Position numbers and translations under genes: made by a program. A DNA stretch of 64,000 nucleotides from Escherichia phage BEU50: the sequence record OM632671.1. One strand, given 5' to 3'. Below are positions 27,477 through 35,065 of the stretch, in pieces. How positions within the stretch are numbered: position 1 is the first letter of the stretch; every line of letters starts with the position of its first letter. Under the pieces are notes generated by a model. That model did no database searches. It was given only the letters and a program-made list of their open reading frames with translations, and had not been told where the DNA came from.

Positions 27477-27788
27477 ATGGTTTATGTATATGCAATAGTT
27501 TATCGAGATATGGAAGGATTTACTGTCCCGGTTCCACTTGATGAGCATCGTCCTGCAGTATTTTTTAGAAAGGATATTGCAGATAAAGTTTTCGATACTT
27601 TGAAAACACAGTATAAAACAGATTTAAAAATGGGAGTTCTAAGAATGGTCGAAACTCCGCGTAAGTTCTGGTTTAATAAGCTTGAAATGAAACACGTTAA
27701 ACTAGATGCGGAGACGCAAAGATTGTATCAACGAATCCTGGACACAGGCCGTATTGTTAGTATTCCAATTGCAGGGACTTTACGATGA
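27477..27788 (+). CDS. Hypothetical protein (103 aa) upstream of dda
   Basis: ORF; overlapping stop/start with dda. Confidence 0.35.
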   Translation: MVYVYAIVYRDMEGFTVPVPLDEHRPAVFFRKDIADKVFDTLKTQYKTDLKMGVLRMVETPRKFWFNKLEMKHVKLDAETQRLYQRILDTGRIVSIPIAGTLR

Positions 27789-29098
27789 CATTTGATGATT
27801 TGACTGAAGGTCAGAAAAACGCCTTCAACGTTGTTATGAACGCTATTAAAGAAAAGAAACATCACGTAACTATTAATGGGCCTGCTGGTACAGGTAAAAC
27901 AACCCTTACTAGATTCATCGTTGAAGCCCTTATTTCTTCTGGAGAATCAGGTATTATTTTAGCAGCCCCTACACATGCTGCTAAAAAGGTTCTAAGCAAA
28001 CTTGCTGGTCAAGAAGCATCGACTATTCATAGCATTCTTAAAATCAACCCAACTACATACGAAGAAAACGTATTGTTTGAACAGAAAAAGGTTCCCGACT
28101 TAGCCTTGTGCCGTGTACTGTTATTTGATGAAGCGTCAATGTGCGACCGTTCTCTGTTTAAAATAATGTTAGCTAGTATCCCTAAATGGTGTACAGTAAT
28201 TGGAATCGGCGACCGATGCCAGATTCGACCGGTAGACCCAGGCGAATCAACTGCGTATCTAAGTCCTTTCTTCACTCACAAAGACTTCGTGCAATGCAAC
28301 CTTACAGAAGTTAAACGTAGCAATGCACCAATTATTGATGTTGCGACTGATATTCGTAATGGCAAATGGATTTACGATAAAGTAGTTGATGGGCACGGTG
28401 TTCATGGATATACAGACCTTAAATCGTATATGATGAACTATTTTAACGTTGTTAAAACTCCTGAAGACCTTTTCGAAAATCGAATGATGGCATTCACAAA
28501 TAAGTCAGTGGACAAGTTAAATTCAATTATTCGCCGAAAACTTCTTGAAACAGAAAAACCATTTATTAAAGACGAAGTCATTGTTCTACAAGAGCCATTT
28601 ACTAAGACATATAAGCTAGATGGTAAAAATATGACCGAAATGCTTTTCAATAACGGGCAATTCGTTCGTATTCGAGATGCTGTAGAAACGTCTACATTCG
28701 TTAAAGCACGTGGTGTTTCAGGCGAATATATGATACGATACTGGAATCTTACAGTAGAAACATATGGGGATGATGAAGAATATATCCGCGAAGATATAAA
28801 GGTTATTTCTTCTGAAGAAGAGCTTTATAAATTCAATTTGTTTTTGGCTAAGACTGCAGAAACATACAAATTCTGGAATAAAGGTGGTAAAGCTCCATGG
28901 AGCGAATTCTGGGATGCTAAACGTATGTTCACTAAGGTGAAGGCACTACCTGTATCAACCTTCCATAAGGCCCAGGGTATGTCTGTTGACACGGCCTTTG
29001 TTTATACACCGTGTATCCATTATGCTGATTCAGAATTAGCTAAACAGTTATTGTATGTCGGCACGACTCGTGGTCGTTTTGACGTCCATTTTATTTGA
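27785..29098 (+). CDS. dda: SF1 DNA helicase Dda
   Basis: Walker A NGPAGTGKTT; 437 aa; RecD-like motifs; T4 synteny with dexA. Confidence 0.9.
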   Translation: MTFDDLTEGQKNAFNVVMNAIKEKKHHVTINGPAGTGKTTLTRFIVEALISSGESGIILAAPTHAAKKVLSKLAGQEASTIHSILKINPTTYEENVLFEQKKVPDLALCRVLLFDEASMCDRSLFKIMLASIPKWCTVIGIGDRCQIRPVDPGESTAYLSPFFTHKDFVQCNLTEVKRSNAPIIDVATDIRNGKWIYDKVVDGHGVHGYTDLKSYMMNYFNVVKTPEDLFENRMMAFTNKSVDKLNSIIRRKLLETEKPFIKDEVIVLQEPFTKTYKLDGKNMTEMLFNNGQFVRIRDAVETSTFVKARGVSGEYMIRYWNLTVETYGDDEEYIREDIKVISSEEELYKFNLFLAKTAETYKFWNKGGKAPWSEFWDAKRMFTKVKALPVSTFHKAQGMSVDTAFVYTPCIHYADSELAKQLLYVGTTRGRFDVHFI

Positions 29099-29107
29099 GA
29101 GAAAATT

Positions 29108-29785
29108 ATGAGCACTGATGTTATTATAGATTTTGAAACATTCGGCAATACATCAAAAGCGGCTGTTATTGACCTTGCGGTTATTGCATATAATTCCGAC
29201 CCTGAAGTTGTTGAATCATTTGAAGAACTTGTTCAACGAGGTAAGCGAATTAAATTTAATTTAGCTTCTCAGAAAGGGAAGCGAGTTTTCGCTAAATCCA
29301 CTATGAAATGGTGGAAAGAACAATCGGCTGAAGCGCGTAAAAACTTGGCTCCGTCTGAAGACGATGTCACTACGCTTGAAGGCATTAAAATCTTTTTAGA
29401 CTATTGCCGAGCTAATAAAGTTGACCAATGGAAATCACAGATGTGGTGCCGTGGTATGAGCTTTGACTTCCCGATCTTGGTCGATTTGATTCGTGACCTC
29501 TATCGTGATGAAGGTGTTCTTGAACCAGATATTGATACTGATAAATTAGAACCGGTTAAATTCTGGGCTCAACGCGATATTCGTACGGCAATCGAAGCTT
29601 ACTCTTTGACACGAGGATTAAGTATGTGTCCATTACCGATGGGTACGCTAAAAGGATTCGTTGCCCATGATAGTATTCATGATTGTGCTAAAGATATTTT
29701 GATGTTAAAATATGCTCAGCGTTATGCGCTTGGCCTTGAAGATGTACCTGAGAATCCTGACCCGTTAAGTGTAAAACAGCGATAA
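29108..29785 (+). CDS. dexA: 3'-5' exonuclease DexA
   Basis: DEDD-type N-terminus VIIDFETFG; 225 aa. Confidence 0.8.
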   Translation: MSTDVIIDFETFGNTSKAAVIDLAVIAYNSDPEVVESFEELVQRGKRIKFNLASQKGKRVFAKSTMKWWKEQSAEARKNLAPSEDDVTTLEGIKIFLDYCRANKVDQWKSQMWCRGMSFDFPILVDLIRDLYRDEGVLEPDIDTDKLEPVKFWAQRDIRTAIEAYSLTRGLSMCPLPMGTLKGFVAHDSIHDCAKDILMLKYAQRYALGLEDVPENPDPLSVKQR

Positions 29786-29789
29786 AACA

Positions 29790-29819
29790 GTTTACAACCA
29801 AGGACGGTTGGAGTATAAT
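29790..29819 (+). promoter_or_regulatory. Early promoter (GTTTACA, 18 nt, TATAAT)
   Basis: Upstream of paralogue 1 (29851). Confidence 0.4.
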
Positions 29820-29850
29820 CTTTCTATCTTAACCAAACAGGAAAAACATT

Positions 29851-30345
29851 ATGAATATCAATACTACGGCTACTTACATCCTGAAAGACGAAAAACAAAT
29901 CAACTGGTACGGTGCTTCAGTGAGAGCTTATGAAAAGTTTTGTGAAATTTTAGGTGCCACTCAAGGTAATAGTTTCACTATTGTTAACTTCATCAAACAA
30001 GCTGAAGGCCCTTGGTTATTCTTAGAAATTAAAAATTCATACGGTACAATTTCTACTACCGCCCTTCCAAGCACCGACTTTGAACTGTTGATTGAAGAAG
30101 TAGAACCCGGTAAAGACATCTGTATTGATATGGATATCGCTTGTATGTACGGTACTCTGATTAAGCCTATTGAGCCTACTGATTTGTTGTGTAAAGCTGT
30201 TTCAATTCGACGTCCGTTCGCAGGTCCAGTGAGTGGATGGGTAACTGATCAATGGATTGAAGACGGTGTTGAACTTCTGAACGTTGTTCATGCAGGTGAT
30301 TTTAGTGTAGTTCCACGTAGTGCTGTGGTTAATATCCTTAATTAA
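29851..30345 (+). CDS. Tandem paralogue 1 of a three-gene family (function unknown)
   Basis: Shares C-terminal block ...WV(T/S)DQWIEDGVELLNVVHAGDFSVVP... with the next two ORFs. Confidence 0.45.
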   Translation: MNINTTATYILKDEKQINWYGASVRAYEKFCEILGATQGNSFTIVNFIKQAEGPWLFLEIKNSYGTISTTALPSTDFELLIEEVEPGKDICIDMDIACMYGTLIKPIEPTDLLCKAVSIRRPFAGPVSGWVTDQWIEDGVELLNVVHAGDFSVVPRSAVVNILN

Positions 30346-30347
30346 TG

Positions 30348-30377
30348 TTGTACATCCAAGGATGGATGGAGTATAGT
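30348..30377 (+). promoter_or_regulatory. Early promoter-like element (TTGTACA, 18 nt, TATAGT)
   Basis: Upstream of paralogue 2. Confidence 0.35.
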
Positions 30378-30407
30378 GAATTCAATTTAAACAAAGAGAG
30401 AAAAATT

Positions 30408-30863
30408 ATGATTACTATTGGTGAAATTAAGCGTGTATCGTCTGCATCTCGTTCTAAAGCTGCAGGTCGTCTAGTTGAAGTGGTAGGACTTCGTACTAAT
30501 GGTACTGGTCGTGTTAAAGAAGTTAAAGTTCGAATCATTCCTAGTTCTGGAAAAACTGAAACTCAGTACGCTTACGTAAGTCCTAAATTTTTGGAAACTC
30601 CTGTGAGCGCTCATTTTGCTTCTACTGAACCTAATGCACAGTTCAAATGGGCCCTTTGCAAAGGTGTTGAATTCCAGACGGATAAAGAATTTGACTTCAT
30701 CGATGAATACGGTTATCCAAGCAAAACTGATACTATGTGTGGCTTCATTAGTGACCAATGGGTTGAAGATGGTGAAAAGTTATACAATATCGTATTCTTA
30801 GGTGACTTCCGAGTTGTTAAAGAATCTGAAATCACTCGCTATGTGTCTCCTCGTAAAGCTTAA
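30408..30863 (+). CDS. Tandem paralogue 2 of the three-gene family
   Basis: ISDQWVEDGEKLYNIVFLGDFRVV; ATG at 30408 preceded by AAAGAGAG. Confidence 0.45.
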   Translation: MITIGEIKRVSSASRSKAAGRLVEVVGLRTNGTGRVKEVKVRIIPSSGKTETQYAYVSPKFLETPVSAHFASTEPNAQFKWALCKGVEFQTDKEFDFIDEYGYPSKTDTMCGFISDQWVEDGEKLYNIVFLGDFRVVKESEITRYVSPRKA

Positions 30864-30872
30864 GGAATTATT

Positions 30873-31292
30873 ATGAATATTGTAAATCTCTCTACAGGTG
30901 ATTATGTATATGTATCCGTTGCTTCTCGCTCTAAAGTTGCCGGGAAGTTGGTTGAAGTTCTTTCTGTGAGTGATCCGGTTTTTGGACGTAACGAAGTTAA
31001 AGTTCGTGACGCTGATGGTAACATTGGTTATGTCTCAAGCCAATTCATTGAACCAGAAGAAAAAGCGTTCAAATGGGGACTATGCAGATCAGTTTCTGTT
31101 GAAAAAGACCATGAATTCACTATTGCTGCGGCAACTGATGGAACACCGTGGAAAACTAAGCAAATCGCTGGATTTATTAGCGACCGTTGGGTAGAAGATG
31201 GTGTTAAGCTTTATAACATCGTTTTCGCTGGACAGTTCATGGTAGTTCCTGAATTCCAAATTAAAAAATATAGCCCAGCTGCTTTCGCATAA
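30873..31292 (+). CDS. Tandem paralogue 3 of the three-gene family
   Basis: ISDRWVEDGVKLYNIVFAGQFMVV; N-terminal ...SRSKVAGKLVEV... shared with paralogue 2. Confidence 0.45.
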   Translation: MNIVNLSTGDYVYVSVASRSKVAGKLVEVLSVSDPVFGRNEVKVRDADGNIGYVSSQFIEPEEKAFKWGLCRSVSVEKDHEFTIAAATDGTPWKTKQIAGFISDRWVEDGVKLYNIVFAGQFMVVPEFQIKKYSPAAFA

Positions 31293-31296
31293 AGTT

Positions 31297-31325
31297 GTTT
31301 ACTTCTCCTCTGGTTTTGGTATTAT
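31297..31325 (+). promoter_or_regulatory. Early promoter (GTTTAC, 17 nt, TATTAT)
   Basis: Upstream of the 31352 start. Confidence 0.35.
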
Positions 31326-31351
31326 AACCATATCAACCAGAGGAGAATAAT

Positions 31352-31876
31352 ATGTTAGTTTACCGCGTAGAACGTAGTTTTTGTACTCAACGTGAATCAT
31401 TACCAGGAATTGCTATCGAAGACGGTAAAGCCGTCAGAATTTGGGAAACCTCTTGGAATAAAGAACCTCGCTCACCATACGGTTGGTCGGGCACCGACAA
31501 CTCTGAAGAAACATGGGAGTTCCTTGATAAACATGGAATAATCTCAGGTAATTTCTACCATCACGGCGACAACTATAACGTCCCTAATCGTCCTACAGTA
31601 AATGAAGACAAACTCCTTGAACAAAATATCTTAAGATACTATAGAATTGAGCACACATTTGAATTGAGTGAAGATTGGGCTCAAGGGTTCTATTTTGGAT
31701 TTGAAAGTGTTGACGCGGTTTATGCATGGTTTGATGACCAGGTGGATGTTGAACTCTTGAAAGCTAAAGGATACTACATCGCGGTCTATGAAGCACCTGA
31801 TTTCATCCTCGGAAGTTGTCAATTAATGTTCAGACGTTCATTGGCAGAACAAGTTGATTTTATTTTGCTAAAATGA
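31352..31876 (+). CDS. Hypothetical protein (174 aa)
   Basis: ORF with RBS AGAGGAGAA. Confidence 0.4.
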   Translation: MLVYRVERSFCTQRESLPGIAIEDGKAVRIWETSWNKEPRSPYGWSGTDNSEETWEFLDKHGIISGNFYHHGDNYNVPNRPTVNEDKLLEQNILRYYRIEHTFELSEDWAQGFYFGFESVDAVYAWFDDQVDVELLKAKGYYIAVYEAPDFILGSCQLMFRRSLAEQVDFILLK

Positions 31877-31933
31877 TGTACAACAACTATGGTCTATGAT
31901 ACTATAGACCTATCAAAACAAGAGGAGAATATT

Positions 31934-32161
31934 ATGAAACGTCAAATCATTAAAAACGTAACTACTGATTCAAACATCGATGAGTTTGAAGATGTTCTGT
32001 TTAATCCTGATTTAGTTGTTGTACAGAAAAACTGGACCGAATTTTTATGCTACACTGAAGTGGTTTACGTTTACGAAAAACTCGGCGATGAAATGCCTAT
32101 CTATGGTATCTTCCGTGAAATCACTGAAAACGGTACAACTTATTGGAAGGAAACTTACTAA
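31934..32161 (+). CDS. Hypothetical protein (75 aa)
   Basis: ATG at 31934 preceded by AAGAGGAGAA and a promoter-like element at 31877..31905. Confidence 0.3.
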
Positions 32162-32574
32162 TGGCTAATAAATTCCGCGTTAACTCATGGTACCAATTTA
32201 AAGATAAACGTGCCCAAGAAGAGTTTATTAAAGACCACACTGATAATGGGATTTATGCACGACGTCTTGGCATGGAACCATTTAAAGTATTAGATGTTGA
32301 CCATCTTGGTCGTCCTACTAAAATTGTGACATCTACTGGCATGGTTGGATACGCAACAGGCGGTGATATCCTTGATGAAAACTTTATCTGGCTCTCCACG
32401 AATGAAGCAGAGTTCTTTGACGAAGTTGGAAATCCATATCAAGAGTCTAAAGAGCAAGATTCTGGTGAACTTGACGAATTGTCTGAATTTCCGGTGATGA
32501 CGATTACTATCGAAAATAACGACCAGGCATGGTCTTTGTATCAAATGTTGAAAGCTCACTTTAAGGAACAATAA
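32161..32574 (+). CDS. Hypothetical protein (137 aa)
   Basis: ATG overlapping upstream stop. Confidence 0.35.
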
Positions 32575-32753
32575 TGCCGTTATACGACTATAAATGTCAA
32601 TCTGAAGATTGTGGTCATGAATATGAAAAAATTAAAAGAATTTCTGAACGAGAAAACGATGTTTGCCCTGAATGTCATCGTCTGTCTACTCGTCGGGTTT
32701 CTGCTCCTAAACATGTGAACGGTGGTTTTTACGACTTACTTAAGAAGGGTTAA
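32574..32753 (+). CDS. Small zinc-ribbon protein (59 aa)
   Basis: CQSEDCGH ... CPECH (two CxxC pairs); ATG overlaps upstream stop; below ORF-track cutoff. Confidence 0.35.
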   Translation: MPLYDYKCQSEDCGHEYEKIKRISERENDVCPECHRLSTRRVSAPKHVNGGFYDLLKKG

Positions 32754-32755
32754 TT

Positions 32756-33181
32756 ATGGCTTTTAAAGGTTTTGAAGTTGGTAAGAAATATCGTATTATC
32801 AAAGGACAAGAAGATAATTTCTTGAGAATTCTTAATACGACTGGTAAACGTCTTAATACTAATCTGCATACTACTTTATTGTCCAAAGATTTTATTGTGG
32901 AAGAGATGATTGGTTACGGTGTTTCGATGATTGCTGTAGAAGCCGTAGGCGATTATGGCCGAACTATTCATAGTATGCAAGGTGATATTCTGCTTTATGG
33001 TGCAGAATTTAAATTCTTTGAAGAAGTTCCGGAACCAGATACAGCTGTCGATTTCAAAAAAGGCTCTATAGAATTTGTTGATGGTTCGGTGATCGTATCA
33101 GGCGATGTGGTCATTACAGTTAAAAGTGAACAAGGGCGTTTAGCTGCAATTGATGCACTTCAGAAAATTAAATTTAAATAA
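32756..33181 (+). CDS. Hypothetical protein (141 aa)
   Basis: ORF directly upstream of gene 39; same length as T4 goF, not verified. Confidence 0.35.
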   Translation: MAFKGFEVGKKYRIIKGQEDNFLRILNTTGKRLNTNLHTTLLSKDFIVEEMIGYGVSMIAVEAVGDYGRTIHSMQGDILLYGAEFKFFEEVPEPDTAVDFKKGSIEFVDGSVIVSGDVVITVKSEQGRLAAIDALQKIKFK

Positions 33182-33199
33182 GGGCTTAGGCCCTTTTTG
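33181..33199 (+). terminator. Terminator-like hairpin (AGGGC-UUAG-GCCCU followed by UUUU)
   Basis: Short GC stem plus T run immediately after the 32756..33181 ORF. Confidence 0.4.
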
Positions 33200-33244
33200 C
33201 TTTAGATTTTGGATGATAGAATACCTTCATAACGAGGAGACAAC

Positions 33245-35065
33245 ATGATTAAAAATGAAATTAAGGTATTGTCAGATGTAGAACATATTAAGAAACGTAG
33301 TGGTATGTATATTGGTTCTTCTGCTAAAGAAGCACATGAGCGTTTTTTGTTTGGTAAATATCAACAAGTTGAATATGTTCCTGGTCTGGTTAAATTAATC
33401 GATGAGATTATTGACAACTCGGTTGATGAAGCTATTCGTACATCATTTAAGTTTGCAAATAAAATTGATGTGCAAATTAAAAATAATCAAGTTTCGGTGG
33501 AAGATAACGGACGTGGTATTCCTCAAGGTTTAGTTACCGACCAAACGGGTGAACAAATTCCTGGGCCTGTAGCAGCCTGGACTATTCCAAAGGCTGGTGG
33601 TAACTTTGGTGATGACTCTGAACGCAAGACTGGTGGTATGAACGGTGTAGGGAGTAGTTTAACTAATATCTTCTCTACGTTGTTTACAGGCATCACGTCA
33701 GATGGCGAAAATGAAATCACTGTTAACTGTTCAAACGGAATGGAAAACAAATCATGGTCTTCTAAGAAATCTAAAGGTAAAGGCACTAAAGTAATCTTCA
33801 CTCCTGATTTCTCTTCATTTGAAGAGCATAATTTATCTCAAATTTATTTAGATATTACTTTAGACAGACTTCAAACATTGGCAGTCGTTTATCCTGATAT
33901 CAAGTTCACATTTAATGGTAAAAAGGTTGATGGTAATTTTAAACGATTTGCTAAACAATTTGGTGAAGATAACATCATTCAAGAAAATGATAAAGTCTCT
34001 ATAGCATTCACAACATCACCAGATGGCTTCCGTCATTTAACTTATGTGAATAACATCCATACTAAAAATGGTGGCCATCATGTTGAATGTGTAATGGATG
34101 ATATCTGTGAACATCTTTTGCCGGGTATTAAAAAGAAATATAAGGGTATTGAAGTCACTAAAGCTCGTGTTAAAGAATGCCTCACAATGTTGATGTTTAT
34201 TAGAGACATGAGCAACATGCGTTTTGATTCTCAGACTAAAGAACGTTTAACGTCAACGTATGGTGATATTCGTAATCATATCCAATTAGATGCTAAGAAA
34301 ATTGCTCAGGCACTTCTTAAAAACGAAGCCTTGATTATGCCTATTGTTGAAGCAGCATTAGCTCGTAAATTGGCAGCAGAAAAGGCTGCAGAAACTAAAG
34401 CAGCTAAAAAGGCGACTAAAGCTAAGGTTCATAAGCATATTAAAGCTAACCAATGTGGTAAAGATGCAGATACGACATTGTTTTTAACAGAAGGTGATTC
34501 GGCAATTGGTTATCTCATTGATGTTCGTGACCGTGAACTACACGGCGGATTCCCATTACGTGGTAAGGTGATGAATAGCTGGGGTATGTCATATGCTGAT
34601 ATGATGAAGAACAAAGAGCTCTTTGATATCTGTGCTATCACAGGTCTTATTCTTGGTGAAAAGGCAGAGAATACGAACTATCGTAATATTGCAATTATGA
34701 CCGATGCCGATCATGACGGTCTTGGAAGTATCTATCCAGCTTTGCTTGCTTTCTTTAGTAATTGGCCTGAATTGTTTGAACAAGGACGTATTCGCTTTGT
34801 TAAAACGCCTGTAATTATTGCACAAATTGGCAAAACTCAAAAATGGTTTTATACTGTAGCTGAGTATGAAGAAGCTAAAGATACACTGCCTAAGCATAGT
34901 ATTCGATACATCAAGGGATTGGGCTCACTTCAGCGAGATGAATATAAAGAAATGATTCAAAACCCTGTGTACGACGTAGTTAAACTTCCTGAAAATTGGA
35001 AAGAACTATTTGAAATGCTCATGGGTAACGACCCTGAACTCCGTAAAGATTGGATGCTAGGATAA
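33245..35065 (+). CDS. 39: DNA topoisomerase II ATPase subunit, fused gp60+gp39 form (606 aa)
   Basis: GyrB-like GHKL ATPase N-terminus (LVKLIDEIIDNSVDEA), TOPRIM (LTEGDSA ... DADHDG); continuous ORF of the length of the fused 60+39 form. Confidence 0.9.
   Translation: MIKNEIKVLSDVEHIKKRSGMYIGSSAKEAHERFLFGKYQQVEYVPGLVKLIDEIIDNSVDEAIRTSFKFANKIDVQIKNNQVSVEDNGRGIPQGLVTDQTGEQIPGPVAAWTIPKAGGNFGDDSERKTGGMNGVGSSLTNIFSTLFTGITSDGENEITVNCSNGMENKSWSSKKSKGKGTKVIFTPDFSSFEEHNLSQIYLDITLDRLQTLAVVYPDIKFTFNGKKVDGNFKRFAKQFGEDNIIQENDKVSIAFTTSPDGFRHLTYVNNIHTKNGGHHVECVMDDICEHLLPGIKKKYKGIEVTKARVKECLTMLMFIRDMSNMRFDSQTKERLTSTYGDIRNHIQLDAKKIAQALLKNEALIMPIVEAALARKLAAEKAAETKAAKKATKAKVHKHIKANQCGKDADTTLFLTEGDSAIGYLIDVRDRELHGGFPLRGKVMNSWGMSYADMMKNKELFDICAITGLILGEKAENTNYRNIAIMTDADHDGLGSIYPALLAFFSNWPELFEQGRIRFVKTPVIIAQIGKTQKWFYTVAEYEEAKDTLPKHSIRYIKGLGSLQRDEYKEMIQNPVYDVVKLPENWKELFEMLMGNDPELRKDWMLG

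Follow-up and report, generated by a model that had tools for sequence, protein, structure and literature searches.

The window analysed here, the whole 64,000-nt stretch of Escherichia phage BEU50 (OM632671.1), carries three consecutive open reading frames, ORF1, ORF2 and ORF3, on the plus strand downstream of dda and dexA (Table 1). Their coordinates and sizes are as the first-pass annotation gave them, with ORF2 read as 151 aa from an internal ATG of a mechanical reading frame that starts at 30345. They are followed by motB.2, which has only its name in common with MotB, and then, in plus-strand order, by cef, goF, a zinc-ribbon 39.2 gene, a goF-like ORF and the gene for the topoisomerase large subunit. 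Over the stretch from dexA to gene 39 (29100-33250), identity reached 98.9% with Escherichia phage NRG-P0074 and 96.7% with RB69, and the best matches were all Mosigvirus. Judged by this identity, the window is that of an RB69-like (Mosigvirus) T4-type phage. The same early region holds a second pair of related genes, goF and the RB69ORF005c-like ORF; both matched phrog_622 (E 8e-39 and 1.5e-21, respectively) and were barely similar to each other by BLASTP. A bidirectional terminator-like hairpin at 33180-33195, where AAGGGCTTAGGCCCTT precedes a run of Ts, separates the goF-like ORF from the topoisomerase gene, and the annotation of related phages gives it as a terminator.

Table 1. Features of the early-region locus, with positions in the window except for the last two rows, which refer to the compared stretches of the T4 and RB69 records.
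Feature	Position (nt)	Strand	Remarks
dda	27785-29098	+	
dexA	29108-29785	+	
Promoter-like site, ORF1	29791-29819	+	TTTACA-17-TATAAT, 11/12 matches
ORF1 (motB.1)	29851-30345	+	164 aa
ORF1 shared C-terminal domain	30175-30342	+	aa 109-164; core 30241-30312
Promoter-like site, ORF2	30349-30377	+	TGTACA-17-TATAGT, 9/12 matches
ORF2 (motB)	30408-30863	+	151 aa
ORF2 shared C-terminal domain	30639-30860	+	aa 78-151
ORF3 (second motB copy, RB69ORF010c equivalent)	30873-31292	+	139 aa
ORF3 shared C-terminal domain	31065-31289	+	aa 65-139
motB.2	31352-31876	+	next gene after ORF3
goF	32143-32574	+	
goF-like ORF (RB69ORF005c-like)	32756-33181	+	
Topoisomerase large subunit gene	from 33245	+	
T4 motB.1	2219-2651 of compared AF158101.6 stretch	-	one extra G
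RB69 motB.1	2252-2748 of compared AY303349 stretch		two single-T insertions

Similarity of the three ORFs to MotB, which the first-pass annotation could not confirm, was clear. All three scored above the curated gathering score of 25 bits of the Pfam motB family (PF17613), ORF1 with 34.9 bits (C-terminal part only), ORF2 with 130.3 and ORF3 with 76.3, and PF17613 was present in every listed homologue for which Pfam had been precomputed, which leaves aside just two fragments. ORF1 matched phrog_2333 over its full length (E 2e-82) and Pfam motB over aa 92-159 (E 1.7e-8), and it is the orthologue of RB69 motB.1 and T4 motB.1 (tblastn to T4 motB.1). Its C-terminal core, PTDLLCKAV...GWVTDQWIEDGVELLNVVHAG, is of the MotB.1 type and has the invariant alignment columns of that subfamily (phrog_2333; Category 2). 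ORF2 matched Pfam motB over its full length (E 7.7e-38) and phrog_1671 (E 2.4e-64), and ORF3 matched motB over its full length and the PHROG 'MotB-like transcriptional regulator' (E 1e-51). The features of MotB proper (phrog_1671; Category 1 of Patterson-West 2021), a KOW-like N-terminal domain with the SRSKAAGKLVEV motif followed by the C-terminal domain, were found together with a position in the early region of a T4-type phage between dexA and cef. In RB69 the corresponding positions have been annotated since 2003 as motB.1, motB and 'RB69ORF010c similar to motB'. The T4 genes at this position, described in the first-pass annotation as unrelated by name, are motB.2, motB.1 and motB, and they are related rather than unrelated, as T4 MotB.1 and MotB have the same C-terminal domain.

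The C-terminal block that drew attention to the three ORFs is present in each of them, as VTDQWIEDGVELLNVVHAGDFSVV in ORF1, ISDQWVEDGEKLYNIVFLGDFRVV in ORF2 and ISDRWVEDGVKLYNIVFAGQFMVV in ORF3, and it is not of low complexity; pairwise alignment placed the similarity far above chance. The paralogy of ORF2 and ORF3 extends over their full length (E 1e-32, with 44% of 145 aligned aa identical), and ORF1 aligned with ORF3 (E 2e-11) and with ORF2 (E 2e-10) in its C-terminal part only. Alignment with homologues extended the shared unit beyond the 24-aa core to a whole domain running from (PTD/FKW)xLCxxV to the C-terminus, which measures 56 aa in ORF1 but, owing to a longer hairpin, 74-75 aa in the other two proteins. 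This C-terminal domain, a small beta-barrel, is common to all three. The published assignment of this domain is an OB-fold (cold-shock type), as in the eIF5A C-terminal domain; we did not reproduce it, and the output of our comparison does not show which domain aligned. A search by sequence found no relatives of solved structure. At the DNA level ORF2 and ORF3 are far diverged and have only short stretches in common, which indicates that their duplication is old and rules out a recent one. The earlier description of a triplicated gene family therefore holds in that the three genes are related, but the array consists of a duplicated motB (ORF2 and ORF3) plus motB.1 (ORF1) and is not a simple triplication.

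Ahead of the shared domain the three proteins differ. ORF2 has a basic KOW-like N-terminal domain, and ORF3 is built from the same two domains but joins them by a shorter linker. The AF2 models of ORF3 (pLDDT 86.8, pTM 0.70) and ORF1 (pLDDT 80.7) are confident and each contain two beta domains, in agreement with the published KOW assignment of the MotB N-terminal domain. Compared with T4 MotB (AAD42609; PF17613, phrog_1671), which ORF2 and ORF3 match over their full length and which has the same KOW-like domain, C-terminal barrel and dexA-cef position, ORF3 lacks ~17 linker residues and one hairpin of the N-terminal domain, and the basic charge of that domain is lost. T4 has one copy of motB. 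The ORF3 gene is the one annotated as RB69ORF010c or RB51ncORF010c ('similar to motB'), with no difference of substance; a gene of this type follows motB directly in RB69-like and some Tequatrovirus phages (RB51) and is absent from T4.

ORF1 consists of a beta-rich N-terminal domain (~aa 1-86), a disordered linker with DMDIACMYGTLIKP and the MotB-type C-terminal domain. In the AF2 model, four strands, each 4-8 residues long, make up this N-terminal domain together with a fifth short strand and two helices. Compared with T4 and RB69 MotB.1 (AAD42610, AAP75915; phrog_2333), ORF1 has a 22-aa linker that carries this motif. The motif, D(M/F)D(I/V)A(C/S)MYGTL(I/V)KP, lies at 30124-30168 (aa 92-106) within the linker predicted to be disordered; elsewhere in the MotB.1 family it recurs at varying positions, N-terminal or between the domains. 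It may be a docking motif. [quoted passage not shown] 2025, PMC12152347), and the N-terminal domain of ORF1 is likewise small and beta-rich, with goF and a goF-like gene present in the same window. A direct sequence link between this domain and GoF was not significant in profile-profile comparison (hhalign E 0.29), and the goF-like ORF cross-matched phrog_2333, the MotB.1 PHROG, weakly (E 9.5e-4). The proposed fold relation between ORF1 and GoF draws on the published structure comparison and this weak cross-match.

The first-pass annotation gave each gene its own promoter-like element; plus-strand sites were found for ORF1 and ORF2, but none for ORF3. Both sites fall inside a 54-nt leader repeat (29793-29846 and 30351-30404, 72% identity), in which the 20-mer CCAAGGAYGGWTGGAGTATA occurs; this 20-mer was found at only two places in the window, against 0.01 expected. 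Promoter-like matches across the region numbered 14, compared with 12.8 in shuffled sequence, so that in the absence of an excess the two sites are plausible by position only. ORF3 starts 9 nt past the ORF2 stop with its own AAGGA ribosome-binding site, and the short gap together with the missing promoter indicates that it is co-transcribed with ORF2. No terminator-like site was found between the three genes. The alternative 172-aa form of ORF2 starting at 30345 was ruled out: its 5' extension overlaps the promoter-like site, and 5 nt of indels put the corresponding RB69 sequence out of frame. We prefer the start at 30408 for these reasons, and the RB69 equivalent, motB, starts likewise. We take the three ORFs to be early genes, with a related putative promoter and leader in front of both ORF1 and ORF2, and with ORF3 transcribed together with ORF2.

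All three genes are under purifying selection. Selection was assessed as pN/pS, where dN/dS had been suggested, in the window and 6-9 RB69-like sequences, varying by gene, and came to 0.077 for ORF1, 0.20 for ORF2 and 0.10 for ORF3, compared with 0.027 for dexA and 0.098 for motB.2. Within Mosigvirus every domain was constrained except the 15-aa linker of ORF2. The 139-aa and 164-aa forms were conserved on many contigs (hundreds). As a scan of IMG/VR gave only 6 loci, the GenBank phage set was used for the distribution of the family; tblastn with the ORF2 C-terminal domain returned 1816 places in 920 phage records. Among 60 records sampled across the tblastn ranking, there were mostly three places per record in RB69-like and some Tequatrovirus phages, two in most other E. 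coli T-even relatives and one in the Klebsiella T4-likes. RB51, a Tequatrovirus, has the same trio of motB.1, motB and motB-like genes. When 1.84 billion cluster representatives were searched with a profile, only 37 clusters were found, the strongest being MotB-family proteins and the rest weak or partial matches, which indicates that the MotB family is very small.

Examination of the reference sequences revealed that motB.1 is interrupted in both T4 and RB69. For T4 (AF158101.6, NC_000866.4), the gene contains a single additional G and reads ATTGGAAGAT instead of ATTGAAGAT, which ends T4 MotB.1 at 119 aa (13.8 kDa, UniProt P39415), inside the conserved core. The extra G was absent from two independent T4 genomes, and an intact MotB.1 of 143 aa (16.2 kDa) was found in 13 other T4-type records. 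In the RB69 reference, two single-T insertions split motB.1 into a 132-aa product and the 29-aa 'RB69ORF012c'. The gene was intact at 164 aa in the window and in 7 of 7 other Mosigvirus genomes compared (mobillu aligned base by base), which indicates that what the literature calls a 29-aa 'Category 3 peptide' is the C-terminal end of MotB.1, displaced by the frameshift. Both reference entries, of 119 aa in T4 and 132 + 29 aa in RB69, are frameshifted versions of an intact gene of the ORF1 type. Kim et al. 2025 (PMC12152347) used gene-synthesised motB.1, gave NC_000866.4 coordinates for the T4 constructs and reported a 13.8-kDa monomer; from these particulars we believe that their heterologous MotB.1 assays probably used the truncated protein.

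These interruptions, and the finding that deletion of T4 motB.1 has no phenotype under laboratory conditions (PMC12152347), could be taken to mean that ORF1 and/or ORF3 are functionless decaying duplicates, or even that chance or low complexity accounts for the match in the shared block. This explanation is highly improbable and is already contradicted by the data on selection and conservation. With pN/pS at 0.08-0.10, frames intact in 7-9 other RB69-like sequences and lengths conserved on many contigs, the ORFs are not pseudogenes; the T4 interruption does not recur in the 13 other T4-type records; and E values of 1e-10 to 1e-32 over domain-length alignments rule out a chance or low-complexity origin of the similarity. 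What lies downstream of dexA is a real local paralogous family of the T4-type early region, kept by selection.

The two halves of these proteins have diverged to different extents. Between BEU50 and T4, the C-terminal domain of MotB.1 (intact in the case of T4) was 88% identical and the N-terminal domain only 32% identical; for MotB the order was reversed, with 49% and 60%, respectively. The nearly invariant MotB.1-type C-terminal domain was found joined to at least four N-terminal layouts, the KOW type included. In the metagenomic proteins P0148 and P0149, the N-terminal domain is of the ORF2 or T4 type (identity 86% and 98%) and the C-terminal domain of the ORF3 type (89% and 81%), and their contigs have a single motB gene after motB.1. 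In this window the FKW codons form a DNA repeat. The chimera pattern is that expected from crossover between tandem copies near the FKW codons, and by this comparison of sequences the copies have recombined with one another. Together with P0151 and P0152, P0148 and P0149 are natural chimeras across MotB types, from loci with one motB rather than two. Within ORF1, synonymous diversity among Mosigvirus genomes was about fourfold higher in the C-terminal domain (pS 0.24, 30175-30342) than in the N-terminal domain (pS 0.05, 29851-30108), while the protein sequence remained conserved. The contrast in pS suggests a recombination boundary inside the gene.

Domain swaps of this kind raise the question of whether these genes form a counter-defence set under diversification, in which the paralogues are directed at different host factors (for example xenogeneic silencers or a defence system) and copy number changes under pressure from the host. 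The variation in copy number of the C-terminal domain (3, 2 or 1 across phage groups), the natural chimeras and the four or more N-terminal architectures would fit such a set, but selection within Mosigvirus is purifying rather than diversifying save in the ORF2 linker, and the anti-defence-related models of PADLOC gave no match. We consider this explanation improbable.

Published work on T4 gives the MotB family a connection to the host nucleoid. T4 MotB is toxic when overproduced, binds modified and unmodified DNA with no sequence specificity, copurifies with H-NS and StpA and raises the burst 2-fold (PMC6070864); it also alters H-NS footprints, with 75 host genes up, about a third of them H-NS-regulated (PMC7827196). 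Knockdown of motB hardly changed the T4 transcriptome (PMC6070864), which leaves the physiological role of MotB weakly defined. By homology, ORF2, as the MotB orthologue, would bind DNA tightly without sequence specificity, associate with H-NS and StpA, change the seating of H-NS on DNA and modestly raise phage yield. We infer the biochemical activity of all three BEU50 proteins in the same way, and their likely role is in early takeover of the host, through binding to DNA and a change in the binding of H-NS. The proposed outcome, relief or remodelling of H-NS binding during infection, is the same as for the H-NS-counteracting gp5.5 of T7; however, gp5.5 interferes with H-NS oligomerization (PMC7827196), whereas MotB binds DNA itself, and no sequence or fold relation of the MotB family to gp5.5-like H-NS counteractors was found. 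We put at roughly 80% the probability of this reading as a whole, in which the three ORFs are MotB-family early genes of an RB69-like T4-type phage (motB.1, motB and an old second copy of motB) and have the proposed roles.

The distribution of charge, although net charge is a crude predictor of DNA binding, fits MotB-type DNA binding for ORF2 only. The N-terminal domain of ORF2 has a pI of 10.7 and a net charge of +8 (pI 9.8 for that of T4 MotB), the N-terminal domain of ORF3 is not basic (pI 5.2), and the whole of ORF1 is acidic (pI 4.5). For the C-terminal domain that the three have in common, pI values run from acidic to neutral (4.7-8.1, with 4.7 in ORF2). Among the N-terminal domains only that of MotB is basic, so on charge the shared domain is probably not a general DNA binder, and the DNA binding of MotB would reside mainly in its basic N-terminal domain. 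More likely, the shared domain is a protein-interaction or assembly module. In ORF2 and ORF3 it is preceded by a KOW-like SH3 barrel, and in ORF1 by a different beta-rich domain, GoF/Frd.2 'LSm-like' according to the literature. As the N-terminal domains that accompany it in ORF1 and ORF3 are not basic, the roles of these two proteins have probably diverged.

Barrels of the KOW, LSm-like and Tudor-like kinds often bind RNA, and the neighbouring goF and cef act on RNA, so the three proteins might instead act chiefly on RNA, as post-transcriptional regulators, and not on DNA or the nucleoid. Against this, T4 MotB was shown to bind and copurify with DNA (PMC6070864), ORF1 and ORF3 are acidic to neutral, and MotB.1 had no effect in an RNA reporter assay, though the protein tested there was probably truncated. 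We regard a mainly RNA-directed role as unlikely, if a little less so than a counter-defence set. Within the preferred reading of MotB-family takeover proteins, a more specific picture is that the shared barrel does not bind DNA but serves in docking or assembly, mediating self- or hetero-association or contact with a conserved host protein such as H-NS/StpA, that interchangeable N-terminal 'heads' are mounted on it, and that the three proteins act as a mixed nucleoid complex. We offer this picture tentatively and think it more likely wrong than right.

Much of this locus was already known, as the RB69 arrangement and the sharing of domains had been annotated and described. Patterson-West et al. 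2021 (PMC7827196) reported that MotB and MotB.1 have a common C-terminal domain and different N-terminal domains, suggested that one of the two arose from the other by duplication, and listed two motB copies, one motB.1 and a 29-aa peptide for RB69. The three-gene observation is therefore real but ordinary, already explained and published, and, with the family, its common C-terminal domain and the extra RB69 copy all in annotation and literature, the finding itself adds little. Its useful by-products are the corrections to the reference sequences, mainly for curation and for the design of MotB.1 experiments. Combined with the partition of charge and the natural domain-swap chimeras, the frameshift corrections lead to concrete, cheap experiments on the role of the shared domain. 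If that domain is a docking module, the published null results for T4 MotB.1 would need to be repeated, as the protein tested was probably without the end of the shared domain. The heads carried by the module would then be KOW domains in MotB (basic) and in its second copy (neutral) and an LSm-like domain in MotB.1, with at least two further types elsewhere.
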